A program made the position numbers and the translations under genes. Of a stretch of DNA of 33,833 nt, positions 15,040-30,346 are shown one piece after another. The stretch comes from a virus, in the IMG/VR virus record IMGVR_UViG_3300010331_000009; one strand, written 5' to 3'. Below the pieces are notes generated by a model. That model ran no database searches. It saw only the letters and a program-made list of their open reading frames with translations, and was not told the origin of the DNA. Each line of letters starts with the position of its first letter. The stretch's first letter is position 1.

Positions 15040-15384
15040 GAAACCAAGGTGTGTGACTGCGGATGCGGTCGAGAATTCGAGGTAGAGGAAGGGCGCCCGG
15101 GCAGACCGCGACGCTACTTCGCACGTGCCTGCAGGAAGCGCGCCGAGCGCAACCGACAGCAGAACGCCACGTGGATCCGCGCCTACGAGGGCGAGCTCCA
15201 CATCCAGAGCGATGCGCCCACCAAGCAGATCACCAATGCGGTCGCTGAGTCCTCGACTATCGCCGCCGCCTTCCGCCGTCTGGCGATCGAAGAGCCCAAT
15301 CCGCGCCTGGCCGCGGGCTGCGAAGCCATGTATCTCGAGATAATCGCCGCTCTCGAGCGCAACTTCCCCGGGTGGTCGGCATGA
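15037..15384 (+). CDS. Hypothetical protein with an N-terminal zinc-ribbon-like motif; first gene of the late block
   Basis: 115-aa ORF with CDCGCG....ARACRKR. Confidence 0.7.
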   Translation: METKVCDCGCGREFEVEEGRPGRPRRYFARACRKRAERNRQQNATWIRAYEGELHIQSDAPTKQITNAVAESSTIAAAFRRLAIEEPNPRLAAGCEAMYLEIIAALERNFPGWSA

Positions 15385-16025
15385 CGAAGGGCCGCATACC
15401 CAAGGATGAAGCGACTCGCACCGGGCATCGCGCCGCCGTAGGGCAGGGCGAGTCGATCGAGGTCGCCCCTGTGTCCGCGAAACTGGTCGGCGCCGAGCCT
15501 CCGGCCGGGCTCTCCCCGCTCGCCTGCGAGGTCTGGCGGGTGTGTGTCACCGACATGGTTGCGCTCGGCCACCTCAGAGAACCCGATCTGCTGCAGCTGC
15601 GCAACTACAGCGTGCAGGCGGCGATCGCCATCGAGTGCGAGGCGACCATCGAGGAGTACGGCGCGATGATGAAGGAGCCGATCATCGCGACCGATCGGGA
15701 GACGGGAATCGCAGAGGTAGTGGGCTGGAAACTCAAGGCCAACCCCGCGTGCAAGCTGCACCGGGAGTCATCGAACACCGTGCGGCTGCTCGCCTCCGAC
15801 CTCGCGCTCACGCCAATGGCACGTATCCGCGGAAACCTCATGGCCATCGCGACTGCCTCGATCGCCATCGGCATCAAGGACGACCTGGAGGCCGACCTCG
15901 AAGCCGAGGATCTGGCGCTGATGCAGGCGAAGAAGCAGCCCAAGAAGCTGCCGGCGCCCAAGAAGCCCAAGAAGACGACCGCAAAGAAGCGCGAGAAAAC
16001 GACCGCGAAGAAGGACGGCAAGTGA
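15381..16025 (+). CDS. terS: Terminase small subunit (P27-family-like)
   Basis: ATGA overlap start at 15381. Position immediately upstream of terL. Contains ...ACEVWRVCVTDMVALGHLREPDLLQLRNYS... and a Lys-rich C-terminal tail. Confidence 0.8.
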   Translation: MTKGRIPKDEATRTGHRAAVGQGESIEVAPVSAKLVGAEPPAGLSPLACEVWRVCVTDMVALGHLREPDLLQLRNYSVQAAIAIECEATIEEYGAMMKEPIIATDRETGIAEVVGWKLKANPACKLHRESSNTVRLLASDLALTPMARIRGNLMAIATASIAIGIKDDLEADLEAEDLALMQAKKQPKKLPAPKKPKKTTAKKREKTTAKKDGK

Positions 16026-17548: not shown

Positions 17549-17579
17549 CGGCTGACACGCCCCGCACCATCAAGCCATG
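17549..17579 (+). promoter_or_regulatory. 31-bp conserved leader ending in a start codon (copy B)
   Basis: cggctgacacgCCCcgcaccatcaagccATG, immediately after the terL stop. Confidence 0.6.
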
Positions 17580-17885
17580 AACACATCCCTGGTCATCAAG
17601 CTCCTCGTGATCGCTGCCGTCGTCGGGCTGGCGCTCTTGTCCACTCGCGGCGTCTACCTGCACCGGATGTTGCGCAGGACCGTGGCCGTCCACCTGAAGA
17701 GCGGCACGTCCATGCGCGGCGTGCTGCAGGGCGTCTACGTCGACAGCATAGTGCTCGTGCATGCGTCGGCAGCTCCGAGCGGCGCGAAGGAGTTCACGCC
17801 TGTGGACGGCGCCCAGGTGATTCCCAAGGCGAACGTCGACTGGATGCAGGACCTCAACACCGTCGCCGCCGGGGAGGTCTCGTGA
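17577..17885 (+). CDS. Small membrane-anchored hypothetical protein between terL and portal
   Basis: N-terminal TM segment LVIKLLVIAAVVGLALL. 102 aa, with a GTGA overlap into the portal gene. Confidence 0.7.
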   Translation: MNTSLVIKLLVIAAVVGLALLSTRGVYLHRMLRRTVAVHLKSGTSMRGVLQGVYVDSIVLVHASAAPSGAKEFTPVDGAQVIPKANVDWMQDLNTVAAGEVS

Positions 17886-19186
17886 CCCTCCTGCTGAGCA
17901 ACGGCCTGCCTACTTCCATCGCCGAGGTCACCCCGGGCTTCTCCATGGCCCCTCGGGTGTTCTCTGATCCGAGCGACACCTACAAGGCCATGGCATACGA
18001 AGCGATCTACCGCCGCCAGCCGGCGGTGTTCTCGGTCGTGAACCGGCTGCTGTACGGCATGTCGCGTCTGCCGCTCAAGGCCTACCAGTTCGGCGAGGAC
18101 GGCGAGAGCCGACAGCACGTCCGCTCCGGGGATCTCCCGACGCTCGTGCGCCAGCCTTGGCCGCGTCACTCGAGGCGCGACCTGATCGCGGCACTCGGAT
18201 TCGACTTGCTGGTCAACGGCAAGTGCCTCGCGTGGAACTTCCGCGGGCGTGCCGGCATGACTCCCGACCAGGTGTGGCCGGTGCCATGGTCCTGCGTGCA
18301 GCCCTACAGCGACGCGCGCGGGATCTACAACTTCCACATCACGATCGGCGGCACCATCTACGTCGTCGACCCGCGAGATGTCGTGTATCTCGAGCTTCTC
18401 GGCGGGGGCGTGTCTCCCCTCGAGCCGCTCCGCCGCACGATCGGGCTGGAAGAGGACGCCATCAAGTGGCAGTCCGAGGCGATGCACAACTCGTTCTCGG
18501 CCAAGGCCATCTACACGACGAAGGCCAACGTCACCAACGAGCCGGTGATGAAGGCGCTGCGCGCCGGACTCGACGACCTCTACCGAGGCCCGAGTGGCAA
18601 GCAGTACGCGATCTTCGGCGAGGGAAGCGACGTCAAGCCGCTCACTGGCATGTCGGCCGTCGACCTGGACCTCATCAAGCAGAAGCAGTCCTCCATCGAG
18701 GCCATATGCGCGTGCTACGACACCCAGCCTGCGGTGCTCGGCTTCTCGACCACCGGCCAAGCGACCACCTACGCCAGCGCCCGCGAGTGGCGCCAGTCGT
18801 TCTACGTCGACGGCATCGGCCCCAAGGTCGACCTGATCGAGTCTGGCCTGAACAGCCAGCTCGTGTTCCCCGAGGCCGCATGGTCCGGGATGTTCCTCGA
18901 GTTCGACCTGTCCGCGCTGCTGAGCCCGGACAGCGAGTCCCAGGCACGCGCCGCGATGCTCTCCATGCAAAGCGCCAGCTCGACGATCAACCAGCGCCTG
19001 CGCGATCGCAACGAACCGCCCATAGACCATCCCCTCGCCGACACCATCTTCGTGCCGGCCAACATGATCCCGCTCGAGCAGTACGACCAGACGCTCGCGG
19101 CAGATATCGCCGCTACGCCCGCCGCGCTCGCGGCTAAGACCGCCGCAGACAAGCTCGTCTCCGACGCACTGACGGCAAAGGAGTAA
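17882..19186 (+). CDS. Portal protein (HK97-type)
   Basis: 434 aa. Positioned between the terminase and the prohead protease. The composition and length are typical of HK97-family portals. Confidence 0.85.
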   Translation: MTLLLSNGLPTSIAEVTPGFSMAPRVFSDPSDTYKAMAYEAIYRRQPAVFSVVNRLLYGMSRLPLKAYQFGEDGESRQHVRSGDLPTLVRQPWPRHSRRDLIAALGFDLLVNGKCLAWNFRGRAGMTPDQVWPVPWSCVQPYSDARGIYNFHITIGGTIYVVDPRDVVYLELLGGGVSPLEPLRRTIGLEEDAIKWQSEAMHNSFSAKAIYTTKANVTNEPVMKALRAGLDDLYRGPSGKQYAIFGEGSDVKPLTGMSAVDLDLIKQKQSSIEAICACYDTQPAVLGFSTTGQATTYASAREWRQSFYVDGIGPKVDLIESGLNSQLVFPEAAWSGMFLEFDLSALLSPDSESQARAAMLSMQSASSTINQRLRDRNEPPIDHPLADTIFVPANMIPLEQYDQTLAADIAATPAALAAKTAADKLVSDALTAKE

Positions 19187-19191
19187 AGACG

Positions 19192-20055
19192 ATGGATCCT
19201 CTAATCATTCCGAAGGCCATGAGCCGCGTTGGCCGGGCGAAGCTCGCGGACAAGCCATTCCCGAAGGCGACAGGCCCCTGGTACGAGGTCGGGGCCAAGT
19301 CGGTGGATATCGGCGCGACCGTGACCGACATCTGGGTCTACGACGTCATCGGCGACGACTGGTGGGATCCGTCGCTCACAGCCAAGGAGCTATGCCAGAC
19401 CATCGTCGGCATCACGACCGACGAGATAGTGCTGCACATGAGTTCCCCAGGCGGGTGCGTATCCGACGCGATCGCGATCTTCAACGCGCTGCGCCAGCAC
19501 CCGGCCAAGGTGAGCGCCATCATCGAAGGCCACACCGCGAGCGCCGCGACCTACCTCACACAGGCCGCCGATCCGGGCTGCATCACCATGTACGACAACA
19601 CCCTCTTCATGATCCACAAGCCGTGGACGTACGTCTTCGAGGCTGGCAATGAAGACTACCTCGAGCAGGTCATGACCGAGGTAGTTGCTTATCTGCGCAA
19701 GTGCACCTCGACGCTTCTCGGCGGATACATGGCGCGGTGCACCAAGACCGACGTCGAGCTGATGGACGCGCTGGCCGCCACCGTGTACCTGGATGCAGAC
19801 GAGGCGCTCGACTGGGGATTCGTCGACACCATCAAACCAGCTCTGGAAGCGGCGGCATGCGCTCACGTCGGGTCGACCCCGTTCGCGGCCATGGGCTTCG
19901 CTCCCATCCCCGCACGACTCGAGGCGCTCGCGGCTGAAGCTGCGCCCGATAACACCGGAACCACTCCCACGAAGGTGCCGGCTGACACGCCACGCATCGT
20001 GGGTCACGTAGTAGCGACGCAATTGACGTCGAGCCAGCTGAGAGGAAGGTCCTAG
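19192..20055 (+). CDS. ClpP-like (S14) prohead/head-maturation protease
   Basis: AAGGAG upstream. Contains ...IVLHMSSPGGCVSDAIAIFNALRQH...IIEGHTASAATYL....MIHKPW, a ClpP-type Ser/His context. Confidence 0.88.
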   Translation: MDPLIIPKAMSRVGRAKLADKPFPKATGPWYEVGAKSVDIGATVTDIWVYDVIGDDWWDPSLTAKELCQTIVGITTDEIVLHMSSPGGCVSDAIAIFNALRQHPAKVSAIIEGHTASAATYLTQAADPGCITMYDNTLFMIHKPWTYVFEAGNEDYLEQVMTEVVAYLRKCTSTLLGGYMARCTKTDVELMDALAATVYLDADEALDWGFVDTIKPALEAAACAHVGSTPFAAMGFAPIPARLEALAAEAAPDNTGTTPTKVPADTPRIVGHVVATQLTSSQLRGRS

Positions 20056-20057
20056 AT

Positions 20058-21374
20058 ATGAGCAAGTTGCTTAAAGCTCGCCAGCGAGCCGACGCCATGA
20101 CCGCCGAGGCGTCCCAGGCATGGGCTGCTGTACTGGAGGCACGGAAGGTTCTATCTTCCGCCATCATCCCTGAAGGAGCCAAGCTCGAGGATCTGCCCGA
20201 GCTCAAGGCATCCGAAGCCGCGATGGACGCGTTCGACCTTGCGTCCAAGACCGCCGAGGCCGCCGTCGCGGACTACGACCGTCTCGCCGTCGCTCTGGGC
20301 GAGAACGACGTCAAGGGCGTCATCCCCGCTGCGGTGTCGCGCATCGGTCAGGCCGCCGCTACCGTCAGTGTCGGTCGCGAGGCGCTCGACCTCGGCCGTT
20401 CGTTCACCGACAGCGACGTCTTCGCCGAGGTGAAGAAGTCCAACCCGAGCGGCCCCGGTCGCATCGGCACCACCGGATCGTCCATGATCTCCACGCGTGA
20501 GCAGGCTCGTGCCGCCATCACGCTTCCGGTCGGCGACAGCGTCATCGCCCCCGACCAGCTGCCGGGCATCCGCTCGCTTCCGCTCATGCCCGCGCTCACC
20601 ATCCTCGATCTCGTGAGCATGCTCACCACCGACTCGACTCAGGTCAAGTGGGTCATCGAGAAGCTCTTCACCAACAACGCCGCCGGTCGCGCCAACGGTG
20701 CCGCCGCCGCCGAGTCCAACCTCGAGCTGGACATCGTCAAGTACGACGTCAAGAACATCTCGCACTTCACCGCCGCTCCTCGCGAGATCTTCGACGACGT
20801 CGCCGGCCTGCAGTCCCTGGTCGATACGAAGATGATCTGGGGCCTGCGTCGCAAGCTCGCCAGCCAGCTCTTCGTGGGCGACGGTCTCGGCGAGAACCTC
20901 ACCGGTATCTACAACGCCGAGGGCATCGGCTCGATCGTGCGCGCCGGCGTGACCGCCGACGCCCTGATCGGCAGCATCTTCGACGCGCAGCAGGTCGTGC
21001 TCGACAGCTACGGCGAGATGCCGTCCGCCACGTTCCTGTGCCCGGCCGACTACAAGACGCTGCGCTTCGCTCGCGAGAGCTCTGCCGGCGTCGGTACCGC
21101 CACCGGTGGCTACCTGTACGGCCCGCCCAGCCAGAACAACCCGATCGACATCGACGGCGTACTGGTCCTGCGTCACCCGGACATCACCGCGGGCAACCCC
21201 ATCACGGGTGTCTGGCGCGAGCTCGCCGTCTGGATGCACGAGGGCTTCAGCGTCTCGGCGACGGACTCGCACGCGGACTACTTCACCAAGCGCATGATCG
21301 CGATCTTCGCGAACTTCCGCGCGGCCGCCGGCCCCATGTCGACGCAGGCTTTCTGCGAAGTCACCCAGGCCTAG
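20058..21374 (+). CDS. Major capsid protein (HK97 fold family)
   Basis: 438 aa directly after the protease. It has an N-terminal coiled-coil delta-like region, and a hairpin lies downstream. Confidence 0.88.
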   Translation: MSKLLKARQRADAMTAEASQAWAAVLEARKVLSSAIIPEGAKLEDLPELKASEAAMDAFDLASKTAEAAVADYDRLAVALGENDVKGVIPAAVSRIGQAAATVSVGREALDLGRSFTDSDVFAEVKKSNPSGPGRIGTTGSSMISTREQARAAITLPVGDSVIAPDQLPGIRSLPLMPALTILDLVSMLTTDSTQVKWVIEKLFTNNAAGRANGAAAAESNLELDIVKYDVKNISHFTAAPREIFDDVAGLQSLVDTKMIWGLRRKLASQLFVGDGLGENLTGIYNAEGIGSIVRAGVTADALIGSIFDAQQVVLDSYGEMPSATFLCPADYKTLRFARESSAGVGTATGGYLYGPPSQNNPIDIDGVLVLRHPDITAGNPITGVWRELAVWMHEGFSVSATDSHADYFTKRMIAIFANFRAAAGPMSTQAFCEVTQA

Positions 21375-21402
21375 CACGACCCGCTCGCTGAGCTGACGGA
21401 TT

Positions 21403-21432
21403 GACCCCGCCTTGCATCGTCGGGGCGGGGTC
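21403..21432 (+). terminator. Terminator-like hairpin after the major capsid gene
   Basis: GACCCCGCC (21403-21411) pairs with GGCGGGGTC (21424-21432). It is followed by TTCCTC, a weak U tract. Confidence 0.55.
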
Positions 21433-21484
21433 TTCCTCATCCAGCCGGCGCGTCGACAACGAATCGACCGGAAAGGGAGGCCCC

Positions 21485-21919
21485 ATGTATACGACCAAGG
21501 AACGGATCTACGGAACGGACGGCAACGGCCGCCGCAGCCTGCTCCATATCGAGGGCGCGCGTATCTCCGACGCTCGCGCTGCGGAGCTCGGCCTGATCAA
21601 GGGCAAGGCTCCCGCAGCCACGAGGGCCACGGGCGCTGCTCCGGGGACCGAGGCTCCCGCCAAGGTCAGTTACGAGGACCTCAAGACCGAGGCCACCGCG
21701 CTCGGCCTTGAGTTCGCCGGCAACATCGGCTCGGTCAAGCTCACCGTCCTAATCGACGAGGCGAAGGCCAAGGTGGCAGCGGCCGCAACTTCGACAGTGC
21801 CGGCAGACGGCACGAAGTCGACGGTCGACGGCGTAGAGGTCACCTGGAGCGAGGCGGGCGGCCAGTGGATCCGCGACGACGATGGCGAGCCCTTCGTCAA
21901 CCCGGAGCCGCAGGAGTAG
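21485..21919 (+). CDS. Hypothetical head-associated protein (HeH/SAP-like segment)
   Basis: GGGAGG precedes ATG 21485. YEDLKTEATALGLEFAGNIGSVKLTVLIDEAKAK resembles a HeH/Rho-N-type motif. The gene sits after the capsid gene. Confidence 0.65.
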   Translation: MYTTKERIYGTDGNGRRSLLHIEGARISDARAAELGLIKGKAPAATRATGAAPGTEAPAKVSYEDLKTEATALGLEFAGNIGSVKLTVLIDEAKAKVAAAATSTVPADGTKSTVDGVEVTWSEAGGQWIRDDDGEPFVNPEPQE

Positions 21920-21927: not shown

Positions 21928-21951
21928 GCGGGGCTGGTCCGCCAGCCCCGC
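21928..21951 (+). terminator. Perfect 10-bp GC hairpin (terminator-like, no U tract)
   Basis: GCGGGGCTGG (21928-21937), loop TCCG, CCAGCCCCGC (21942-21951). Confidence 0.45.
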
Positions 21952-22022: not shown

Positions 22023-22355
22023 ATGAAGCACGTCGACGGACAGCCCTATTGCTCACTTCCCTGGTGCGGTGCCTCGTTCGGGGCCCCGAGCCATAAGCGC
22101 GTGTTCAGGGTCGCCGGCGAACTCGTTGAGCTCACCTACCCGTCGATGATCGAGATGCACGACGTGGTCCCCCGCTCCCAGGGCGGAGATCCCGAGGACC
22201 TCGAGAATAACGTGCCGATCTGCCTCGAGTGCCACCACGCTCACCACTCGACCGGCTCCGGTCGTCTCATCTTCTGCGGCACCGCGGTGTCTCGCGCCGA
22301 CGGCCGCACCGGCACGCTCGTACTCGGCGATCGCGAAGGGTTGGATGCGCTATGA
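22023..22355 (+). CDS. HNH endonuclease (third; free-standing, within the structural module)
   Basis: Contains MHDVVPRSQGGDPEDLENNVPICLECHHAHH, an HNH motif. ATG 22023 lies within track ORF 21882..22355. Confidence 0.8.
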   Translation: MKHVDGQPYCSLPWCGASFGAPSHKRVFRVAGELVELTYPSMIEMHDVVPRSQGGDPEDLENNVPICLECHHAHHSTGSGRLIFCGTAVSRADGRTGTLVLGDREGLDAL

Positions 22356-22672
22356 AGACTGTCCTCACTATCGCCCTGGCGGCTCTTCTCGCAGCCGGCC
22401 TGGTCATCCTCTGTGGCTCGTTCGCTGATCAGCCTGAGCCGCGTGCGATCGCGCCGCTGGACCTTGATTCAACGATGCCGGTCATCGTCCGCCACGAGAC
22501 TCCGGACGGCGTGCAGGTCGCGCCTCCGGAGACCATGCCGCTCTGGAAGTACGTCGAGCAAGAGCGCGGCGGATCGGATACCGACCTTCGGCGCGCGCTC
22601 GAGTGCGACATACACGCGGGCGACACGTCACTCCATCTTACGCACGAACTCATCGACGGCCGGAGCTTCTGA
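22352..22672 (+). CDS. Secreted/membrane-anchored hypothetical protein
   Basis: ATGA overlap start. N-terminal signal-like MKTVLTIALAALLAAGLVILCGSF. Confidence 0.65.
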   Translation: MKTVLTIALAALLAAGLVILCGSFADQPEPRAIAPLDLDSTMPVIVRHETPDGVQVAPPETMPLWKYVEQERGGSDTDLRRALECDIHAGDTSLHLTHELIDGRSF

Positions 22673-24000
22673 TGGGCGCATACATAGGAGCCGCGATCGA
22701 CCTACAGACACAGCCAGATGGCACGATCCGAGACGCTGTGACCGGCGCGCTTGCGGCCATCAACCGCACTGGAAGCGTCTACGGTATCGACCCGATCACG
22801 GGCAAACTCAAGGCGTTTGGTGCCAACCTGCTTGCCGCCGAGAAGTACCCGAACGGTGGTGGCTATTGGGCGGCAGGAGAGAGTGCCGCCACAAACCGAT
22901 TCATCAACTCCATGAACACTTCGGACGTGAACGCTGATGGGTTCGCGGACGGTTTCGTGTTTCAAGGCTATAACGCCACCGACACAAAGAGCCTGATTGA
23001 CGCTTCGGATTTCTTGGACGGAGCGAAGTGGCAACGTATCTCCATGACGGGGACTGCTGCTCAGAGCATCTACAACGGGAGGGCGTCGATAAAGGACGTT
23101 CTGAATGGCTTGGCACTCGCGCCGAGCACCACATATTCGGTCAGTCTCTTCTACCGATATGCGCGGCAGACAGGCTGTAATCCGGGAGCGTTCTGCGAGT
23201 TCACCGACGCGGCAGGAGCGTACTACGGACTAGTGGGTGCGACATCATCTGGCGGCGCGATGGTGCTGGATAACTCCGCTACGATCAGGCGATGCACCTA
23301 CACGATCACTACACCTGCGGCTCTAGGTTCTGCGGCAAAGATAACCCTGAACGTAGGCAACGCAAGCCAGTGGCATGAAGGCGACACGTTCGGAATCGAC
23401 TTCACAGCCATTCAGGTTGAACTCGCATATCCGACCTCGTTCATCCCGACAACGACTGCTCCGGTTCTCCGACCATACGATCAGATAACCTACCCGAGTG
23501 CGGCGCTTGGCTCGGGTAGCCTGACGGTGGCCGTTGTCGCTGTCGTCCCTTGGAACGTCTACGGGACGTTGTTCGATTGGGTTGGCACGGGCGGCCGCGC
23601 GGTTAACGACCAGCAGATAGGCCGACAGGGTACTGGCTTCTGGGCTTGGGCGCGGTCTAACTCTCTGCCGCTTTCTGCTTCGACCATACCAACGGCTAAT
23701 GTCACCGCTGGCGTTCCTCACGTGTTCGCCGGGCGGTGGGACGTGGCGGCAGGGGCAATCAAACTCTCCGTGGACGGCGTTCACAGAACAGCCTCCACTG
23801 GATACACACGGCCACTTGGCTTGGGAGTGAACTTCGGGATTGCGAACTCATCCGGCTACTTGCACCGGATGGTTGCATTCACGTCCCTGCTTTCCGATGC
23901 CGAGATAGCCGCGCTCTCTACATCGCTCCTCGCTGGCACGCTCAACGCACGACGACGACGCCCGATCTTCCGCACTCTCGGTGGAATCACGAAGGGATAG
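22672..24000 (+). CDS. Two-jelly-roll protein: CBM-like N-terminal half plus LamG/concanavalin-A-like C-terminal domain (fibre/receptor-binding or decoration candidate)
   Basis: ATG 22672 overlaps the upstream TGA by 1 nt. The C-terminal HVFAGRWD..GAIKLSVDGV....IANSSGYLHRMVAFTSLLSDAEIAAL matches the Laminin-G_3 pattern. A/T-ending codons are clearly more frequent than in flanking genes. Confidence 0.7.
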   Translation: MGAYIGAAIDLQTQPDGTIRDAVTGALAAINRTGSVYGIDPITGKLKAFGANLLAAEKYPNGGGYWAAGESAATNRFINSMNTSDVNADGFADGFVFQGYNATDTKSLIDASDFLDGAKWQRISMTGTAAQSIYNGRASIKDVLNGLALAPSTTYSVSLFYRYARQTGCNPGAFCEFTDAAGAYYGLVGATSSGGAMVLDNSATIRRCTYTITTPAALGSAAKITLNVGNASQWHEGDTFGIDFTAIQVELAYPTSFIPTTTAPVLRPYDQITYPSAALGSGSLTVAVVAVVPWNVYGTLFDWVGTGGRAVNDQQIGRQGTGFWAWARSNSLPLSASTIPTANVTAGVPHVFAGRWDVAAGAIKLSVDGVHRTASTGYTRPLGLGVNFGIANSSGYLHRMVAFTSLLSDAEIAALSTSLLAGTLNARRRRPIFRTLGGITKG

Positions 24001-24003
24001 ACC

Positions 24004-24894
24004 ATGGGAACACAGACGATTCCATTCTTCATCGACAAGGCAGACGGGACGGGTATCCTCATTGGCGTCGCGGCAACCGCCACAGTCCAGTACGGTTCCG
24101 CCGCCGCCGCTTCCACTCCGGTCACGATTTGCGGAGAGGCTTACAGCGTCACAGTGGACGACACGCAGAATGCCGCCGTGAAGATTGTCGCGGCCGGAGC
24201 AACCACGTTCGGTTTCTCTATTGCCAGAGTCCCGCCTGACATGACCACAGAGGCGAAGGCAACAGCCAACAAGAACACACTTATTCAGGGCGATAACGGG
24301 CTGGCCGACATCTTGATGAATTTGGGTGTTAGAGTCGCCACGAACGCCGACAAGGGCGGGTATACGCTCACGCCTGCTTACGACCGCGCCAAGACAGCGG
24401 CGAAGCCAGAGGAAGTAGCGGTCACGGTGCCTGCGCCTGTCGTGAATCCAACGCCGGTCACGGTCAACCCGACTCCGGTGACAGTCAACCCCACGCCGCT
24501 CACTGTGAATCCCACCGTGTTGGATTCGGCGGAGCGCGCCGCGATCACAGCGGAGATCGAGCGCGCCGGTGGAATGCTTGCTGAGACCAAGGCAGACACC
24601 ACCGTGATCCTCGAAGCTACGACCTTCACGGCCAACGAGGCGATGCTCACGCAGGACTCGCGGGACGTCGATGGATTCATCATCGGGATCACGACTCCTT
24701 CGGCGGCGGTCACAGCGTTTCTGCGGACTGACGTGGCTCGAGCTAACCCGAAGCGCGCCGCGACCGCCGAGACGGACGGCGACTGGCAGCTGCCGGCCAA
24801 GCGCGGCGCCGGCTACACGCTCGTGTTCACACACGATGGATTCCGCAATCCGGACGGATCCGCCGATGTGACAAGGGAGGTCGATGTACCGTGA
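24004..24894 (+). CDS. Hypothetical structural protein with a VNPTPVT tandem repeat
   Basis: 296-aa ORF containing 3.5 copies of a 21-bp (7-aa) repeat at 24442-24518. Lower GC3, like the upstream gene. Confidence 0.7.
   Translation: MGTQTIPFFIDKADGTGILIGVAATATVQYGSAAAASTPVTICGEAYSVTVDDTQNAAVKIVAAGATTFGFSIARVPPDMTTEAKATANKNTLIQGDNGLADILMNLGVRVATNADKGGYTLTPAYDRAKTAAKPEEVAVTVPAPVVNPTPVTVNPTPVTVNPTPLTVNPTVLDSAERAAITAEIERAGGMLAETKADTTVILEATTFTANEAMLTQDSRDVDGFIIGITTPSAAVTAFLRTDVARANPKRAATAETDGDWQLPAKRGAGYTLVFTHDGFRNPDGSADVTREVDVP
24442..24518 (+). repeat. 3.5 x 21-bp tandem repeat encoding VNPTPVT/VNPTPVT/VNPTPLT/VNPTV
   Basis: Units start at 24442, 24463, 24484 and 24505. The units differ mostly at synonymous positions. 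Confidence 0.85.
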
Positions 24895-25541
24895 CAGCCG
24901 AGCTGATCCCCATCGAATCGACCGCAGGCGCGCAGCTCTGCACGCTCGAGCAGGTCAAGTCCCGCCTCGGCATGGACAAGTCCGGCGACGACGACAAGAT
25001 CTCGGCCCTGATCGCGGCCGTCCTGCCGACGTTTTCCAAGCGCCTGCGACGCGAGCTCATGCCGCACGTGACCGCCCCGCGCTCCTTCGACGTCGAGGGC
25101 GCGTTCGTGGCCCTGGGCGCCTCGGACCTGCGCTCCGCGTCCAGCGTCGTGCTCACGCTCGACGACACCGATAGGGTGCTGACCCCCGGCATGGACTACA
25201 TGCTGTGGCCCTTCGACGCCCTGACGGGCACCGCGGGCTACCTCAAGATATCGCGCAACATCAGCCTGCGCTCCACGTGCTTCGATGCGTTCGGCATCGT
25301 GCCGCTCATCGTGACCGGCGACTGGGGCATCTGGGACCGCGTCGAAGACGTACCCGCAGACGTCAACATCGCGGCCATCGAGACCGTGCTCTCCTGGCTC
25401 GATCGCCCCTCGGCCGAGATCGCGATGATGGGCGGCGGGGATCCGCGCTACATGGAGCCGGCCGCGCCTCAGACGTGGGACATCCCCGCAAGCGCGTGGC
25501 GCAAGCTCTCGGCGTACAACCGCCCGGTCGGGGTGGTGTGA
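24891..25541 (+). CDS. Head-tail connector/adaptor (gp6-like)
   Basis: GTGA overlap start. CTLEQVKSRLGMDKSGDDDKISALIAAV resembles the gp6-like connector N-terminal motif. It is the first neck gene. Confidence 0.7.
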   Translation: MTAELIPIESTAGAQLCTLEQVKSRLGMDKSGDDDKISALIAAVLPTFSKRLRRELMPHVTAPRSFDVEGAFVALGASDLRSASSVVLTLDDTDRVLTPGMDYMLWPFDALTGTAGYLKISRNISLRSTCFDAFGIVPLIVTGDWGIWDRVEDVPADVNIAAIETVLSWLDRPSAEIAMMGGGDPRYMEPAAPQTWDIPASAWRKLSAYNRPVGVV

Positions 25542-25542
25542 G

Positions 25543-25992
25543 ATGAAGTCCAGTGTGCCCGCACTCAAGGTCGCGCTCAAGGCGCGTCTCAAGGCTGACC
25601 CCGCCTTCGCCGGCGAGGACACGATGGTATCGATCGGCAACCCCCATCCGGCCCGTGCCACGCGCGAACTCGTCGCCATCGGCAAGGTCTCCAACCGCGT
25701 GACCGAGTACCGAGGCAGCATGTCCCAAGGCCGAGAGACCTACGACATAGCAGTGCTGGCAAGCGTCATCGGGTCCGCGGCCCTCGGTCACGAGGAGCTG
25801 CTCGTCAAGGCATATGAGCTGGCCGCGGATGTGGTGGCGAGCGTCCTGGACTGGCGGAACAACGCCCAGCGATATGACGGGATCGTCGACATCATCACCG
25901 AGGGCGTGTCCGACGACGACGAGGCGGTCGACACAGACGGTCGTGAGGTATCGGTCACGCTCTCGTTCCACGTGACCGCAAGCATCGTCTGA
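25543..25992 (+). CDS. Neck/tail-completion protein
   Basis: 149 aa. Called from its position between the connector and the gp10-like gene. Confidence 0.6.
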   Translation: MKSSVPALKVALKARLKADPAFAGEDTMVSIGNPHPARATRELVAIGKVSNRVTEYRGSMSQGRETYDIAVLASVIGSAALGHEELLVKAYELAADVVASVLDWRNNAQRYDGIVDIITEGVSDDDEAVDTDGREVSVTLSFHVTASIV

Positions 25993-26519
25993 TGGCTGTC
26001 GACCGCGCCGGCGAGGCGAGGCAGTCGGTCTCCGCCTACATCGACCCGACCCAGCTCAAGGCGCTCAAGCGCGCCATCCAGGACGCGGGCAAGGAAGCCC
26101 GGCGCTCCGTGCGCGCACGGCTCAAAGAGGCCGGCACCGTCGTGGCCGTCGAGATCAAGAGCCGCACACCTGTCGGGAGAGTCAAAACAACCGAACGGAA
26201 GCGTGTGGTCGGAGCGACTCTCTCGTCCCGTATGGGAAAGGGAGGCGCCACGCGCACGGCCGCGCACGGCAACGGTCTGCTCAAGCGATCCACGAAGCTG
26301 CGCATGGGATCCCTCTCGGTCGCGGTCTACAACGACGCCCGCGCCGTGAGCCGCAAATACCCCGGCGGATACCGCTACGGCAAGCGCATCGAGTTCGACC
26401 CGAGCTACTCCTCCCGCTACGCGTTCTTCTATCCGGGCTTCGATGCGTCCAAGGACCAAGCCCTGAAGCTCTTCGACAAGCTGCTCGACGACATCACGCG
26501 CGAGTACCTGCGCGGCTGA
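25992..26519 (+). CDS. HK97 gp10-like neck protein
   Basis: Contains LKALKRAIQDAGKEARRSVRARLKEAGTVVAVEIKSRTPVG, the gp10-family pattern. ATG overlaps the upstream TGA by 1 nt. Confidence 0.65.
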   Translation: MAVDRAGEARQSVSAYIDPTQLKALKRAIQDAGKEARRSVRARLKEAGTVVAVEIKSRTPVGRVKTTERKRVVGATLSSRMGKGGATRTAAHGNGLLKRSTKLRMGSLSVAVYNDARAVSRKYPGGYRYGKRIEFDPSYSSRYAFFYPGFDASKDQALKLFDKLLDDITREYLRG

Positions 26520-26558
26520 CACCCCCGCGACTATGGGTGTGAGAGATGGGAGCACGAC

Positions 26559-26714
26559 GTGAAGCTGACCAAAGACCACAAGCGCCTGCTGCGCGAGACC
26601 GGCGGACTGATCGTCGGCGGGCGGCTCGTGACGTATAAGGAGCCCAAGCCCCGCGTGAAGCCCGAAGCGGTCAAGGCCGCAGACAAGGAGACCGGCCATG
26701 ACCCCAAGCTATAA
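26559..26714 (+). CDS. Possible 51-aa Lys-rich small protein (not in the ORF track)
   Basis: GGGAG (26547-26551) lies 7 nt before GTG 26559. Hand-translated: VKLTKDHKRLLRETGGLIVGGRLVTYKEPKPRVKPEAVKAADKETGHDPKL. It overlaps the next gene by 17 nt. Confidence 0.35.
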   Translation: MKLTKDHKRLLRETGGLIVGGRLVTYKEPKPRVKPEAVKAADKETGHDPKL

Positions 26715-27666
26715 CGGCGGAGAGCACTGGTTGGGCTTCAAGCCCGAGCTGGTTCCGGGGGTGGCCGAGGCGACCGTGACCACGTTCCTCGTCACCGAGT
26801 CCGTCTCCATGAACCCCAACCCCAAGCCAATCGAGCGCAAGGCCCAGATGGCGACCGCTCGCCGCCTGCCTTCGCGCCGCGGATGGATCGCCCCGGACGG
26901 CAAGACCAGCTGCGAGATCCACGCCAGCCAGCCCCAGCCGTTCTACTGGGCGCTCGGCAAGGTTGTCAGCACGCAGCCCGCTCTGGCGACCGACCCGTTG
27001 GTATTCCTCCACACGATCACGGACGGTGGGGCCCCCGTCTCGTTGACGGCAGAGGCCGACCAGGTCTACTCGAAGAAGAAGCAGTCCGGGGTGCGCGTCG
27101 ACAAGCTCACCCTCAAGGCCCAGGTCGGAGAGATGGCCGCACTCGAGATCGCATGGTTCGGCCTGACGCATACCGAGGGAGCCGAGCTCACGTCGGTCCC
27201 CGTGTTCCCGACGGCTCCGATGACGTGCGTCGCGATGACCGTCAAGATCGCCGGCCAACAGGATCTCCGAATCCCAGAGGTGGAGATCGTCCTGGACAAC
27301 GCGATCGAGCAGCTCCCCGTGCTCGAGGACGCCCAGGGTGGACCTCACGTGGCGCGCCGCAAGGAGGCGCTGAAGGTCACGGGCAAGCTCAAGTTCATCG
27401 ACTTCCCCGCCGAGCAGCTCGCCGTGATCCGCAACGCGGGCAGCTTCGAGCTGGTCACCGATCTTCTCGGAGACGTCATCAGCAACGAGTACCGCGAGTT
27501 CGTCCGCATCACGCTTCCCGCATGCCAGTACACCGGCGGTCTGGACGCCGAGTCGGGCTCCGCGATCATCACCGGCGATGCCAACTTCGAGGGCTTCTAC
27601 GACGTCGTCACCGGCGAGCAGGTCGTCATCGAAGTCCAGGACACCGTATCCGTCATCACCGAGTAA
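26698..27666 (+). CDS. Major tail protein
   Basis: 322 aa, immediately upstream of the chaperone pair and the tape measure gene. The call is based on conserved gene order. Confidence 0.75.
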   Translation: MTPSYNGGEHWLGFKPELVPGVAEATVTTFLVTESVSMNPNPKPIERKAQMATARRLPSRRGWIAPDGKTSCEIHASQPQPFYWALGKVVSTQPALATDPLVFLHTITDGGAPVSLTAEADQVYSKKKQSGVRVDKLTLKAQVGEMAALEIAWFGLTHTEGAELTSVPVFPTAPMTCVAMTVKIAGQQDLRIPEVEIVLDNAIEQLPVLEDAQGGPHVARRKEALKVTGKLKFIDFPAEQLAVIRNAGSFELVTDLLGDVISNEYREFVRITLPACQYTGGLDAESGSAIITGDANFEGFYDVVTGEQVVIEVQDTVSVITE

Positions 27667-27680
27667 GAGGAGGCCGACCC

Positions 27681-28169
27681 GTGCGCATCATCCGAGACTC
27701 CGACACCGTCGAGTACGTCGACGAGTCGGGCGACAAGCTCGTACTACTCTCCGCTCCGCGCCAGCGCGACGTCGAGTCCTCCGACCTCATCGAGCGCGAT
27801 GAGGCCATGGGCCAGATGCAGGCTTTGAAGAAGAGCGGCATCGACACCGACGCTTTCATGGCCGATGCCAAGAAGGACCGCGACGCGCTCGAGGCCGCCA
27901 AGGAAGCGGTCAAGACCTCGCTGCCCGCGGCCAAGGTGCGAGAGTTCCGGCTCAAGTCGCTCGGCATCAGGCTCGTCATCGGTGGAGAGAACATCGGCGG
28001 AGAAGCCATCGTCACGTCGTACCGCGATATGGACCCGATCTCGGCCGCGTGGATCGACAAGTGCGTCGGCGAGACCTGGATGGGCGCCCTGCCGTCTGAT
28101 GAAGACACACGCGGCGAGGGTGCTGATGCTCCAGTGCCTGTCGGCGCCACCGTCAGCACCCCCGCTTAA
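27681..28169 (+). CDS. Tail assembly chaperone (gpG-like)
   Basis: AGAGGAGG (27666-27673) precedes GTG 27681. 162 aa, acidic, positioned between the major tail protein and the tape measure. Confidence 0.75.
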   Translation: MRIIRDSDTVEYVDESGDKLVLLSAPRQRDVESSDLIERDEAMGQMQALKKSGIDTDAFMADAKKDRDALEAAKEAVKTSLPAAKVREFRLKSLGIRLVIGGENIGGEAIVTSYRDMDPISAAWIDKCVGETWMGALPSDEDTRGEGADAPVPVGATVSTPA

Positions 28170-28347
28170 CGCACTGAGCCGCAACCCGCGCATCGCCTCT
28201 CTGATCGGGCTCTACTCGCAGGCCAAAGACATGGGTGCACTGCCCAACCCGGGCGCGCTGCTCGACCAGAGAGCCGACCACTACGCGTTCTTCGCGATCT
28301 TCTCAGCCGCGATAGCCGAGCACAAATACATCACGAACAAGGGGTGA
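27681..28347 (+). CDS. Frameshift-extended tail assembly chaperone (gpGT-like), requiring a +1 or -2 shift near 28158-28164
   Basis: 28170-28347 is open only in the frame +1 relative to G. That stretch has no plausible start before an ATG at about 28230, and it ends 4 nt before the tape measure ATG. The run ACCCCCG (28158-28164) lies 3 nt before the G stop (TAA 28167-28169). Confidence 0.55.
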
Positions 28348-28351
28348 TCCC

Positions 28352-30346
28352 ATGGCCGCCAACGCACGCATCCTTGAGATCATCCTTCGGGCCAAAGACG
28401 AGTCGAGCAAGGTGTTCGACCAGGTATCGAAGTCGAGCGCGACGTTCTCCGACAAGCTCGGCTCGGTAGGCAAGTCGGCGACGCTGGGCGTGAGCGTCCC
28501 GCTGGCCGGTGCGGGCATCGCCGTGGCCACGCTGGCCGCGAACTTCGAGACGTCGATGAACGTCCTGCAGACCAACGCCGGCGCGACCGGTGCCGAGATG
28601 CAGAAGCTCGAGACGTACGCCAAGAAGATGGGCGCCGAGACCGTGTTCTCCACTCAGGACGCGGCAGACGGCATGCTCGAGCTTTCCAAGGCCGGCATGA
28701 ACACCGAGCAGATCATGGGCGGTGGTCTGGCCGCTGCTATGTCCATCGCCGCGACCGAGGGTATGGCCCTCGGCGATGCCGCGACGGTCACCTCCAACAC
28801 CATGAACATGTTCGGGCTGAAGGCTGGCCAGGCGGCCACGATCGCCGATACGCTGGCGGGCGCGTCGGCAGGGTCGACCGCCAGCGTGCTCTCCCTCACG
28901 GAAGGTCTGGCCCAAGTGGGCCCCGGCGCCAAGAACGCGGGGCTATCACTCAACGAGACCGTAGCCGTGCTCGCGGCGTTCGACGATGCAGGGGTCAAGG
29001 GATCCGACGCCGGCACGTCGCTCAAGACGATGCTCGTTAGTCTCGTTCCCAAGACCGACAAGGCCGCGTCGATGATGAAGAGCCTCGGTCTGTCGTTCGT
29101 AGACAGCAAGGGCAACATCGACGACGTCGCCACGGTCGCGCAGAAGCTCAAGGACAAGCTCGGCCCTCTATCCCAGGAGCAGCGCACGGCTGCCATGGCC
29201 ACCATGTTCGGTTCGGACGCGACGCGCGCGGCCTCGATCCTGATGGACCAGGGCGCCACCGGCATCCAGAAGTACATCGCGTCGACGGAGCAGTCGGGCA
29301 AAGCGGCCGAGATGGCCGGTGCGCGCCAGAAGGGCGCCGCCGGAAGCATCGAAGCGATGATGGGCTCGCTCGAGTCGGCCGGTATCGCGCTCGGGCAGGC
29401 GCTGCTACCGATCATCACCAACATCGCCAAGGATGCGGCCGTTGTCGTCAACAACTTCGCCGGGTGGTGGGAGGCGATCGGTCCGGGCGGGCAGAAGGTC
29501 GCGCTTATCCTCACCGCGATTGTCATCGCCGCCGGCCCGCTGGCCAGCATCATCAGCGTCATCACCGGGGTGGTCGGCCTGCTCTCGTCCGCCTTCGTGA
29601 TCGAAGGCGTCACCGCCGCCGCCGCATGGCTCGCCACGATCTGGCCCGTCGCTCTCGTCATAGCCGCGATCGCGCTGGTGGCAGGCGGCATCTACCTGCT
29701 CATCAAGAACTGGGGAACCATCGGCCCGTTCTTCAAAAAGCTCTGGGCTGGGGTAACCAAGGCGTTCTCGGGATTCTGGAGCGGGACCAAGACGTTCGTG
29801 AAGAAGTGGGGCGTCGAGATTCTGGCGGTCCTCGTGCCCTTCATCGGCGTTCCTCTCTTCATCATCAAGCATTGGAATGTCATCGGACCCGCGCTGTCCA
29901 AGATCTGGTCCGGGGTATCGAAGGGCGCGAAGAAGGGCATCGACTCCGTCGTCGGGTTCGTGCGCTCGCTGCCGGGCAGGCTGCTCGACGCGCTGAAGGG
30001 GCTTGCAGCCACCATCACGCGTCCGATAGATGCAGCCTGGAACGTGCTCCAGAAGCTCAACCCGTTCATGCGGCACTCCCCGTCATTGGTGGACAACGTG
30101 TTGGCCGGAGCCAGCACCATCGCCAGCGCCTACGCGGGCGTATCGGGAATCAGCATCGCCAGCCCGACACTCGGCGGCCTTTCCATGCCGGCGTTCGCCG
30201 GAGCACAGTCGCTGGGGCAGGGGCCCAGTCTGCCCGGGCAGACAGGCGCCGGGGGCCAAGCGTGGCGCATCTATCTGGACGGCCGTGAGCTGACACGTGC
30301 GACCGCTAAGACCACTGCCGCCAACGGGCGCAGCGGGGCGCGATGA
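28352..30346 (+). CDS. Tape measure protein
   Basis: 664 aa with a TP901-type core-like N-terminal region (...AGMNTEQIMGGGLAAAMSIAATEGMALGDAATVTSNTMNMFGL...), hydrophobic segments in the C-terminal half, and the expected position. Confidence 0.88.
   Translation: MAANARILEIILRAKDESSKVFDQVSKSSATFSDKLGSVGKSATLGVSVPLAGAGIAVATLAANFETSMNVLQTNAGATGAEMQKLETYAKKMGAETVFSTQDAADGMLELSKAGMNTEQIMGGGLAAAMSIAATEGMALGDAATVTSNTMNMFGLKAGQAATIADTLAGASAGSTASVLSLTEGLAQVGPGAKNAGLSLNETVAVLAAFDDAGVKGSDAGTSLKTMLVSLVPKTDKAASMMKSLGLSFVDSKGNIDDVATVAQKLKDKLGPLSQEQRTAAMATMFGSDATRAASILMDQGATGIQKYIASTEQSGKAAEMAGARQKGAAGSIEAMMGSLESAGIALGQALLPIITNIAKDAAVVVNNFAGWWEAIGPGGQKVALILTAIVIAAGPLASIISVITGVVGLLSSAFVIEGVTAAAAWLATIWPVALVIAAIALVAGGIYLLIKNWGTIGPFFKKLWAGVTKAFSGFWSGTKTFVKKWGVEILAVLVPFIGVPLFIIKHWNVIGPALSKIWSGVSKGAKKGIDSVVGFVRSLPGRLLDALKGLAATITRPIDAAWNVLQKLNPFMRHSPSLVDNVLAGASTIASAYAGVSGISIASPTLGGLSMPAFAGAQSLGQGPSLPGQTGAGGQAWRIYLDGRELTRATAKTTAANGRSGAR

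Follow-up and report, generated by a model that had tools for sequence, protein, structure and literature searches.

A low-GC3 gene pair between the capsid and adaptor genes of a temperate siphophage: a candidate exchangeable adhesin cassette, probably mounted on the head or neck

Why would a temperate siphophage carry genes for a lectin-like protein and a fibre-like partner between its capsid and head-tail adaptor genes? The question is raised by a stretch of 33,833 nucleotides (IMG/VR virus record IMGVR_UViG_3300010331_000009), here called the window, which contains an integrated phage with its integrase at 211-1497. The original prediction described a block of low GC at third codon positions (GC3) from 22.0 to 24.9 kb, regarded it as a separately acquired cassette opened by a possibly homing HNH endonuclease, and proposed that its large proteins were either displaced host-range determinants or fibres on the capsid or neck. 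The features of this region are as follows.

21928 to 21951, + strand: GC-rich hairpin with a perfect 10-bp stem, GCGGGGCTGG-tccg-CCAGCCCCGC (sequence)
22023 to 22355, + strand: HNH2, a free-standing HNH endonuclease of 110 aa (Pfam PF01844)
22352 to 22672, + strand: g106, 106 aa, with a hydrophobic N-terminal signal or anchor, MKTVLTIALAALLAAGLVILCGS (read from the sequence)
22672 to 24000, + strand: g442, lectin-like protein of 442 aa, core of the island
22672 to 22815, + strand: g442 residues 1-48, conserved N-terminal module (invariant alignment columns)
22855 to 23478, + strand: g442 residues ~62-269, CBM4/9/22-like jelly roll of the 'GTA head spike fiber' domain family (profiles, Foldseek)
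23500 to 23904, + strand: g442 residues ~277-411, LamG/pentraxin/ConA-like beta-sandwich (profiles, Foldseek)
23944 to 23997, + strand: g442 residues 425-442, basic C-terminal tail RRRPIFRTLGGITKG (alignment)
24004 to 24894, + strand: g296, fibre-like partner of 296 aa, second gene of the island
24004 to 24228, + strand: g296 residues 1-75, N-terminal beta domain 'type A', MGTQTIPFFIDK... (alignment)
24451 to 24515, + strand: 21-nt tandem repeat, 3.1 copies, encoding (P)TPVTVN units (Tandem Repeats Finder, score 74)
24634 to 24891, + strand: g296 residues 211-296, CarboxypepD_reg-like beta-sandwich (identity, PF13620)
24891 to 25541, + strand: head-tail adaptor of 216 aa (phrog_442, E=2e-11)

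A sliding profile of the window confirmed that a step in composition exists, while narrowing its extent. Total GC falls from ~0.65-0.69 to 0.57-0.61 within roughly 22.5-24.6 kb, and in-frame GC3 falls from 0.85-0.95 to 0.62-0.70 across the island; the right border is sharp, with the adaptor gene starting at 24891 back at a GC3 of 0.93. GC2 in the island is raised (0.55) because of amino-acid composition. Measured against the 30 other prophage genes (mean GC3 0.846, sd 0.040), both g442 (GC3 0.661, z=-4.6, binomial p=2e-24) and g296 (0.731, z=-2.9, p=2e-8) deviate strongly, and a CAI-like index gives 0.45 and 0.53 for the two genes and 0.60-0.81 for nearly all others. Chance falls far short of explaining such values, and the step is therefore real. 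By the same measure, g106 is borderline (0.766, z=-2.0) and HNH2 is no outlier (0.811, z=-0.9), which places HNH2 outside the block and moves the left border from 22.02 kb to about 22.35-22.67 kb. Thus, the low-GC3 island consists of two genes, g442 and g296 (22672-24894), and is narrower than first described.

As had been predicted from the sequence, g442 combines a CBM-like jelly roll with a LamG/ConA-like domain. Family profiles and Foldseek agree on this, and the all-beta AF2 model (pLDDT 72, pTM 0.71) recovered tandem CBM and LamG/pentraxin folds. Twenty-nine distant relatives were found by exhaustive HMMER searching. The jelly roll, with its C-terminal motif QVE..YPTSFIPTTTAPVLRPYD, scores 39.9 bits against NCBIfam NF048003 (curated cut-off 36, E=6.3e-10, residues 148-268), the family profile matches PDB 6tb9_F3, 'Head spike fiber Rcc01080' (E=2.4e-8), CBM_4_9 was found in 6/30 g442 relatives, and the modelled domain resembles CBM22 and CBM4. 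For the second domain, Laminin_G_3 was found in 9/30 relatives, profiles match 4qvs and 6er2, and Foldseek returned pentraxins, CBM40 and the lectin-like domain of botulinum toxin (rmsd ~3 A over ~160 residues). The N-terminal module (M.AY.GA.IDLQ.Q.DG.I.D.V.G.LA.I.R.G..YG..P.TG.L) is the best-modelled part of the protein (pLDDT 86-90) and also heads the homologues P0012 and P0014, where it is followed by 2-3 tandem jelly rolls; we take it to be a putative attachment region. The basic tail RRRPIFRTLGGITKG is kept in the closest phage homologues, is unstructured in the model (pLDDT <50) and could serve as a docking peptide. Over its whole length the model resembles ConA-like phage fibre proteins in BFVD (TM 0.62-0.67), and the relatives are modular in build, with one N-terminus and one to three jelly rolls. 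In the comparisons with BFVD and PDB, g442 therefore has the modular architecture of a fibre with a distal carbohydrate-binding domain.

The second gene, g296, belongs to a currently unnamed family, with the homologues P0003-P0005, L107_340, L108_349, L112_200 and L113_329. Its type A domain, in which beta strands are predicted with low confidence, is common to the phages L009, L108 and L119, and by eye to L111; the protein L119_265 aligns with positions 4-78 of the g296-family HMM (E=7e-23). The repeat character ascribed to this protein was borne out by the (P)TPVTVN units, which sit in the fibrous middle of the chain. The C-terminal domain is the most conserved part of the family (55% identity to P0004 and 43% to P0005), PF13620 was found in 5/6 members, and the best Foldseek match, obtained with a weak model, is a CarboxypepD_reg protein of phage Mendera. 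The model of the whole protein is unreliable (pLDDT 43), and its sole predicted helix is short (residues 175-192).

The block had been described as inserted between head and neck genes; in our comparison with about a dozen genomes, a small sample, it did not prove to be a one-off insertion. A g296-like gene lies directly upstream of a phrog_442 adaptor gene in the window, L009, L010, L107 and L112, directly upstream of a phrog_477 adaptor gene in L113/L114, and in L108 before the first gene past the head block, which makes seven genomes with this address. The capsids of these phages belong to three to four families (PF05065, Mu gpT-like, SU10-type and phrog_422). The gene upstream of the g296-like gene varies: in the window it encodes the lectin g442, in L009 a BNR-like protein of 995 aa and in L112 a protein of 433 aa with YadA-like repeats. 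In L010, a g296-like protein is paired with a jelly-roll-only protein of 189 aa. g442-like and g296-like genes adjoin each other in the window, L107, L108 and L119 and, as judged by eye, also in L111. In unrelated phages, including some with conventional tail tips, the place just before the adaptor gene is thus a recurrent slot for a g296-like gene and a variable adhesin. The pair is absent from seven relatives that share the head module of the window (L013, L037, L041, L043, L045, L046 and L049), which supports exchange of the pair as a unit. In these phages, the distance from the capsid gene to the tape measure gene is 3.8-4.5 kb, and in the window it is 6.98 kb, or 4.1 kb once the block is subtracted. 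The pair therefore both differs in composition from its flanks and is missing from relatives, in the manner of a foreign island.

On balance, we lean towards reading g442 and g296 as a horizontally exchanged two-gene accessory adhesin cassette of the late operon, probably mounted on the head or neck. The site is favoured because of synteny together with the head-spike-fibre domain: the pair sits 4.3 kb ahead of the tape measure gene, in the interval from g144 to the adaptor gene, whereas siphophage tail fibres are encoded past the genes for the tape measure, Dit and Tal. In such a cassette, g296 would be anchored to the capsid, or else at or close to the head-tail junction, and would carry g442. 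The complex might then bind a cell-surface polysaccharide of the host reversibly and through multiple contacts, raising adsorption ahead of engagement by the tail tip, in the manner of the lactococcal collar-whisker (NPS) and the head spikes of RcGTA. The slot upstream of the adaptor gene may be tolerant of recombination, with the receptor-specific partner being swapped between phages of different hosts, which would explain the foreign codon usage. Several observations weigh against this reading: the structural neighbours of g442 in BFVD are often annotated as tail fibres, the model of g296 is poor and the context sample is small, and neither the repeat by which the RcGTA fibre is anchored nor, by sequence, a protein like its base was detected.

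An alternative hypothesis is that g442 and g296 form a displaced tail fibre or primary receptor-binding protein, placed on the tail tip or baseplate and acting as the main host-range determinant, which is merely encoded upstream of the connector genes. As originally noted, g417 (30343-31596) is the sole gene between the tape measure and lysis genes of the window. L112, the window's only relative in the tail module, likewise has one gene past the tape measure gene, so that in this lineage the cassette could be the main tail-attached receptor-binding device; L009 also shows one such gene, but its contig ends within it, and it therefore cannot be counted as a single-gene tip. The tail reading is kept alive by homologues in tail-fibre clusters, namely a g442 homologue past the tape measure gene of L109/L110, in the company of fibre genes, one of them for a Peptidase_S74 protein, and a protein with a g296-like C-domain adjoining an amidase in a fibre-like cluster of L011; the tail-fibre annotations of the whole-length structural neighbours point the same way. 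However, the g296-like gene keeps to the adaptor gene, and not to the tail-tip genes, in all seven genomes. In addition, L010 has a full tip (Dit, a beta-helix protein and Tal) and L107 has two large genes past the tape measure gene, yet both carry the cassette at the head-proximal slot, where it is therefore additional to the tail tip. The L112 homologue of g417 moreover matches a phrog_892 tail fiber at its C-terminus (E=2e-5), so the tail tip may carry a receptor binder of its own. We accordingly regard a displaced tail fibre as unlikely, though it is the most serious competitor of the head- or neck-mounted cassette.

A bolder version of the preferred reading would make the g296 family a previously undescribed and widely mobile neck anchor that uses the head-tail adaptor of siphophages as its docking site and displays adhesins that can be exchanged (head-spike-type lectin, BNR/sialidase-like or YadA-like), with this neck-proximal device, instead of the tail tip, as the main host-range determinant in the lineage of the window. 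We offer this version as a speculation that is rather doubtful in its full extent.

It could also be argued that HNH2, g106, g442 and g296 are non-structural prophage cargo (a moron) with functions in lysogenic conversion or exclusion, for example a surface lectin and a membrane protein. An unusual composition is characteristic of morons, g106 carries a signal or anchor and lacks homologues, and the slot holds clearly non-virion cargo elsewhere: amidase/endolysin-like genes in L033, L028 and L030 and a methyltransferase-glycosyltransferase fusion in L112. Some g442 relatives are also fused to type IV pilin signals and are therefore cellular surface proteins. By contrast, g442 and g296 themselves have no signal peptide and are translationally coupled within the late structural operon (the g106 stop and g442 start overlap by 1 base, the gap between g442 and g296 is 3 nt, and the g296 stop overlaps the adaptor start by 4 nt, GTGA). 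Scans found no promoter or terminator bracketing the pair, a defence-system search gave no matches, and the pair recurs at the same structural position in viral contigs that are not integrated. A moron is thus improbable.

Separate acquisition, as originally proposed for the whole block, was supported for g442 and g296 and not for HNH2. In L107, L108 and L012, no neighbouring gene has a GC3 as low as that of the g442 homologue, while in L109, a phage of low GC, the homologue and its two neighbours reach 0.42-0.51 vs ~0.21; the homologues thus deviate both downwards and upwards from the genomes that carry them, which supports horizontal exchange. The least probable of the readings is low GC3 that arose without transfer, through (relaxed) codon selection in low-copy accessory genes or the constraint of repeat-rich proteins rich in Gly, Thr and Ser: a shared expression-level effect would also yield the low values in L107, L108 and L012, and the raised GC2 does reflect amino-acid composition, but weak codon bias alone does not predict the upward deviation in L109, which fits incomplete amelioration after transfer, and the slot genes of L009 and L010 are compositionally normal, the pair is missing in head-module relatives and its partners are swapped.

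To our knowledge, sugar-binding accessory fibres of the head or neck are known from few systems: the RcGTA spikes, the lactococcal NPS and the head fibres of phi29. Fibres at these sites influence adsorption, host range and the binding of capsules or biofilms, and an exchangeable sugar-binding host-attachment device is of an already known kind. The closest comparison is with the RcGTA head spikes (base Rcc01079 and fibre Rcc01080; GhsA/GhsB), whose fibre shares a jelly-roll domain family with g442. Rcc01080 has been shown experimentally to be a capsule-binding head fibre anchored by its N-terminus (PMC7296036, PMC10218006), where an (I/L)-Gly repeat (residues 2-10, IALGLGLGL) docks into the pentameric base (PMC7296036). 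These spikes bind capsular polysaccharide reversibly and raise adsorption without being essential (PMC7296036, PMC10218006, PMC5026251), and rcc01080 homologues in phages have carried annotations as tail proteins (PMC5026251). Both systems are two-gene modules from patchily distributed, horizontally exchanged families, with a lectin-like body after an N-terminal anchoring region (putative in g442). The g442 N-terminus, MGAYIGAAIDLQTQPDG, differs in lacking the IALGLGLGL five-point-star repeat, in place of which it has its own 48-residue module, and g442 has an additional LamG domain and C-terminal tail. Neither the g296 family profile nor g144 matched the 6tb9 base chain in PDB by sequence (the g296 structural model being of pLDDT 43). 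In RcGTA, the spike genes are found away from the structural cluster, whereas g442 and g296 lie between the capsid and adaptor genes. The RcGTA spikes sit on capsid pentons; for g442 and g296, a site on the head or neck is probable.

The NPS of lactococcal 936 and P335 siphophages consists of an N-terminal beta-sandwich, a fibrous shaft and a distal binding domain (PMC6669499). It resembles the present pair in ending in carbohydrate-binding modules, in its swappable distal domains and in being carried by only some relatives; it is an accessory, non-essential fibre of the head-tail junction, the corresponding site for g442 and g296 being deduced from synteny. However, NPS is made as one chain of ~500-900 residues that comprises a BppU-like N-domain, a long trimeric coiled coil and a C-terminal CBM, whereas here there are two polypeptides with one short helix. 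As the pair also showed no sequence match with BppU/BppA structures, identity with NPS was rejected; the function may still be analogous. The ConA-like/LamG 'tail fiber protein' of Escherichia phages EdH4 and NBEco002 shows the same two-domain beta-sandwich over the whole of g442, but with an identity of only 11-18%, a larger size, annotation as a tail component and another gene position.

The locus suggests a recurrent two-gene version of such fibres, whose address just before the adaptor gene is fixed and whose binding partner can be swapped; the phages that carry it have capsids of several unrelated types. If this address is general, it would provide a simple annotation rule for host-interaction genes outside the tail-tip region, as well as a natural plug-in site for engineers who wish to retarget phages.

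The two genes upstream of the pair are best regarded as separate neighbours in the same slot and not as parts of the adhesin. The hairpin, which begins 9 nt past the stop of g144, marks the upstream edge of this variable slot; its RNA fold is of -28.4 kcal/mol (z=-2.0 vs shuffles), and it could be an attenuator or a terminator without a U-tract; the terminator scan found no canonical terminator. At the downstream edge, the adaptor, the first backbone gene past the island, shows a weak match to gp6-like connectors. The signal-peptide protein of the original prediction corresponds to g106, probably a small protein of the membrane or a secreted one, for which Pfam, PHROG, NCBIfam and PADLOC gave no match and homologues were undetected. 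Its start overlaps the stop of HNH2 (ATGA). The HNH domain of the latter was likewise verified (PF01844, E=3.8e-6, 27.4 bits against a cut-off of 21.4, together with PHROG HNH families), and its nuclease motif is intact (CxxxxC...CxxC and HD...N...H). Like the free-standing homing endonucleases of phages, HNH2 is a small stand-alone gene between conserved structural genes. It differs from them in its normal composition and in having no relatives in isolated phages: tblastn gave zero matches among 50,697 phage records, and the gene is missing from L112 and every other phage that carries a g442/g296-like pair. The 17 contigs of the same prophage all carry it in identical form, so that among them it shows no presence/absence polymorphism. 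Neither composition, nor the 17 contigs, nor the other pair-carrying phages thus provided evidence for the suggested homing. A separate, packaging-type HNH gene is located at 14351-14902, beside terS.

The record holds a complete integrated temperate siphophage of ~33 kb with 65% GC, and no tRNA genes were found in the window. The late operon begins with terS, terL, g102, portal, ClpP-type protease, capsid, g144, HNH2, g106, g442, g296 and adaptor, and continues with g149, an HK97 gp10-like gene, a Phage_tube_2 tube gene, chaperones, tape measure, g417, a small membrane protein and an M15/SH3 lysin. The main features are as follows.

211-1497, minus strand: tyrosine integrase
5694-8120: ParB-domain protein
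14351-14902: HNH gene (HNH plus HNH_5 domains), directly upstream of terS
20058-21374, late operon: HK97-fold capsid protein
22023-22355: HNH2, a small free-standing HNH gene
22352-22672: g106, a 106-aa signal/anchor protein
22672-24000: g442, a lectin-like protein
24004-24894: g296, its fibre-like partner
24891-25541, late operon: phrog_442 head-tail adaptor, directly after g296
28352-30346, late operon: tape measure gene
30343-31596: g417

The same prophage, with identical gene content, is carried by 17 metagenomic contigs, the longest on record being 260 kb, and on these contigs a host GT4 glycosyltransferase gene lies downstream of the prophage. The host is probably actinobacterial, since the closest relatives of the capsid protein (42-48% identity) are found in metagenomes and in MAGs bearing the label Thermoleophilia or Actinomycetota. 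A megablast search of 50,697 phage records with the structural half of the window returned no match, nor did a single-protein scan of IMG/VR with the capsid protein. At 27681-28347, upstream of the tape measure gene, the contig gene calls contain two overlapping reading frames (products of 162 aa and about 73 aa), which look like the usual tail assembly chaperone pair produced via a programmed frameshift.

Between about 22.5 and 24.6 kb, total GC falls to 0.57-0.61 and in-frame GC3 falls from 0.85-0.95 to 0.62-0.70. Compared with the 30 other prophage genes (GC3 0.846 +/- 0.040), g442 has a GC3 of 0.661 (z=-4.6, p=2e-24) and g296 of 0.731 (z=-2.9, p=2e-8), while the values for g106 and HNH2 are 0.766 (z=-2.0) and 0.811 (z=-0.9), respectively. 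On the right, the drop ends abruptly where the adaptor gene starts (adaptor GC3 0.93); on the left, the edge is soft and begins in g106. Given the GC dip and the per-gene z-scores, the low-GC3 island is real and spans 22672-24894; the original prediction had it open at 22023, and its step is confirmed, but the HNH gene lies outside. HNH2 and g106 are joined by ATGA, g106 and g442 overlap by one base, g442 and g296 are separated by 3 nt, and g296 and the adaptor are joined by GTGA, with Shine-Dalgarno-like motifs inside the upstream genes at these coupled junctions. No canonical promoter or terminator was found bracketing the block. A perfect 10-bp, GC-rich hairpin without a U-tract (21928-21951; -28.4 kcal/mol, z=-2.0), 9 nt past the stop of g144, may act as an attenuator of transcription passing from the capsid genes to those that follow.

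The g442 protein had no match in Pfam or PHROGs, and neither a single-protein scan of IMG/VR nor a tblastn search of phages (in which g296, the L107 partner and HNH2 were also queried, with 0 matches) returned a homologue. A word-indexed search was insufficient, recovering only g442 itself, and exhaustive HMMER was required to obtain its 29 relatives (27-42% identity). Across this family, Laminin_G_3 was detected in 9/30 members, CBM_4_9 in 6/30 and a type IV pilin N-methylation signal in 5/30. The family profile matched the 'Head spike fiber Rcc01080' (6tb9) of RcGTA, the Rhodobacter capsulatus gene transfer agent, with E=2.4e-8 across the jelly roll and its terminal QLE.G...S.IPT...VTR..D motif, and more weakly matched baseplate proteins and LamG-like domains. 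In addition, g442 alone as query scored 39.9 bits against NCBIfam NF048003 ('phage head spike fiber domain'), above its curated threshold of 36. The AF2 model, built on a 20-sequence alignment, is all-beta (pLDDT 72, pTM 0.71). Its matches in the PDB were tandem CBM22/CBM4 folds as well as pentraxin/LamG/CBM40 folds, and full-length matches were obtained to ConA-like phage proteins (TM 0.62-0.67), several of which are annotated as tail fibre. On these profile, NF048003 and model matches, the predicted CBM-like jelly roll plus LamG/ConA-like domain of the 442-aa protein proved correct, and its lectin domain is a member of a named, known family.

The N-terminal 48 residues of g442 form a conserved module that also heads relatives with two or three tandem jelly rolls, and a basic C-terminal tail is common to g442 and its closest homologues. 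In five relatives (P0017, P0019, P0022, P0023 and P0032), the jelly-roll plus LamG body is fused at its N-terminus to a methylation signal of type IV pilin kind (GFTIVELLVVIVVIGILA); cellular pilin-like surface proteins therefore also make use of the phage lectin module. Scans with alignment A6 found nothing in IMG/VR and a single match in JGI metagenomes, apparently the L109 phage itself.

Relatives of g296 were few in the initial search, and more were found among the fetched comparison loci. Conservation is highest at the C-terminus, in a CarboxypepD_reg-like beta-sandwich of 85 residues; g296 shares its 'type A' N-terminal beta domain with L009, L108 and L119, and the middle is variable and fibrous, with a 21-nt x 3.1 repeat in the window copy. 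The family profile had no sequence match in the PDB. The AF2 model, built from four sequences, is unreliable (pLDDT 43), and Foldseek recovered only the CarboxypepD_reg domain from it, the search otherwise carrying little weight given the weak model.

Synteny provides the main new evidence: the g442/g296 pair, or a variant of it, sits at the same place in each of the following phages.

Gene order around g442-like and g296-like genes in comparison phages
L107 (HK97 capsid, S78 protease): capsid, 158 aa, g442-like 435 aa, g296-like 340 aa, phrog_442 adaptor
L108 (Mu gpT-like capsid): capsid, two small genes, g442-like 448 aa, g296-like 349 aa, connector-sized genes
L010 (SU10-type capsid): jelly-roll-only 189 aa, g296-like 334 aa, phrog_442 adaptor; later a full Dit, beta-helix and Tal tip
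L009: capsid, 995-aa BNR-like protein, g296-like 249 aa, phrog_442 adaptor
L112: capsid, methyltransferase-glycosyltransferase fusion, 433 aa with YadA-like repeats (GC3 0.48), 103 aa, g296-like 200 aa, adaptor
L113/L114: g296-like 329 aa directly upstream of the phrog_477 Ad1 adaptor
L119: g296 N-domain protein, followed directly by a g442-like protein of 1652 aa, a few genes past the capsid gene

The 995-aa protein of L009 shows no similarity to g442 and was therefore treated as a replaced partner. Genes of the g442/g296 type are absent from seven head-module relatives (L013, L037, L041, L043, L045, L046 and L049; capsid identity 30-36%). Six of the seven include a tape measure gene, which lies 3.8-4.5 kb from the capsid gene; in the window this distance is 6.98 kb, or 4.1 kb without the block. 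Thus, a comparison with related phages does yield relatives lacking the pair, but the slot itself recurs elsewhere. Because the pair or its variants occur in L107, L108, L112-L114, L119, L009 and L010, with other or no genes at this place in the head-module relatives, the position just upstream of the adaptor gene is a recurrent variable slot, in which the g296-like gene is the most constant occupant and its partner is exchangeable. However, a g442 homologue lies among fibre genes after a 2513-aa tape measure protein in L109/L110, and in L011 a g296 C-domain protein belongs to a fibre-like cluster that precedes an amidase gene; therefore, these domains are general fibre building blocks, and position alone is no proof of the mounting site. 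Searches of the PDB with g144 and the adaptor gave no match.

Three other head-module relatives have an amidase/endolysin-like gene in the slot between g144-like and connector genes (L033 11845-12540, L028 12630-13226 and L030 9329-10066; PHROG endolysin/amidase, best E 1e-16), a long way from where a lysis cassette normally lies. In L112, the 768-aa fusion directly after the capsid gene (5711-8017), again in this slot, joins a methyltransferase, a CTP-dependent riboflavin-kinase-like domain and a GT2 glycosyltransferase, and could be a virion- or host-glycan-modifying enzyme.

The window is itself a mosaic. Its packaging/head genes (15372-21919) have many IMG/VR relatives (L027-L049; capsid identity 30-48%), whose connector/tail genes are unrelated to those of the window. 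Only L112 has connector and tail genes homologous to the window's, at 24891-31596 (adaptor 2.6e-37, tube 1e-73, g417 7.6e-41), and it shares only terL with the head module; a tube-protein scan (alignment A9) again retrieved the L112 contig alone. The head/tail junction coincides with the variable slot.

Between the tape measure and lysis genes, separate Dit and Tal genes are normally expected. As had been predicted, a single gene, g417 (417 aa), occupies this region of the window (28352-32739, lysis genes from 31674), and it had no match in PHROG, Pfam, NCBIfam or the PDB. The same layout is found in L112 (13431-16918), with a 511-aa g417 homologue bearing a weak tail-fibre-like C-terminus, and in L009 (12422-15257) one gene follows the tape measure gene, the contig ending within it. 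The single tip gene favours an alternative in which g442/g296 is the tail-mounted primary receptor binder, which we regard as doubtful. That the block is non-structural prophage cargo seems quite unlikely.

We infer instead that the pair is an accessory adhesin carried on the virion. The g296 protein would form the shaft and anchor the device to the capsid or in the region of the head-tail junction, and g442, attached to it via its N-terminal module or C-terminal tail, would bind host surface polysaccharide, so that adsorption would be raised ahead of tail-tip engagement. In RcGTA, the head spike consists of a pentameric base and one N-terminally anchored capsule-binding fibre, and its loss cuts transfer by about two-thirds (PMC7296036, PMC10218006, PMC5026251). 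The lactococcal neck passage structure is a non-essential collar with fibres ending in CBMs and weak host binding (PMC6669499). The proposed adhesin would work like the former and would resemble the latter. The cassette would thus belong to a known kind, accessory carbohydrate-binding head or neck fibres, with the g296 pairing and address as a new variant. Pfam, PHROGs and NCBIfam contain no name for the g296 family, for its pairing with head-spike-type lectins or for the fixed adaptor-side address, and no description was found in a full-text literature search.

In high-GC phages, the GC3 of the g442 homologue lies below that of its neighbours (L107, 0.71 vs about 0.8; L108, 0.51 vs 0.55-0.76; L012, 0.64 vs 0.69-0.86), whereas in the low-GC phage L109 it lies above (0.44 vs about 0.21). 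Incomplete amelioration after transfer fits this two-way deviation better than a codon-bias effect, and codon-usage selection without transfer is a very unlikely source of the low GC3. In L109 (43% GC), GC3 reaches 0.42-0.51, vs about 0.21 in the neighbours, across three consecutive fibre genes at 10001-15531, which encode the g442 homologue, a 664-aa protein and a LamG protein of 750 aa. This high-GC island mirrors the low-GC island of the window. The terL of L012 (1311-4280) contains an intein with a LAGLIDADG homing endonuclease domain.

In other phages, the cassette occurs without HNH2 and without g106. HNH2 is a small, intact HNH nuclease of normal composition without relatives among isolated phages, and the suggestion that it is a homing element found no evidence of mobility, all 17 contigs carrying it identically. 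A defence-system reading of the block was rejected, PADLOC giving only trivial HNH-motif matches. The g106 product is a predicted orphan membrane or secreted protein, perhaps a small moron. Of the two HNH genes in the prophage, the packaging-associated one is that at 14351-14902, not HNH2; an HNH gene directly upstream of terS is also found in HK97-like packaging systems.
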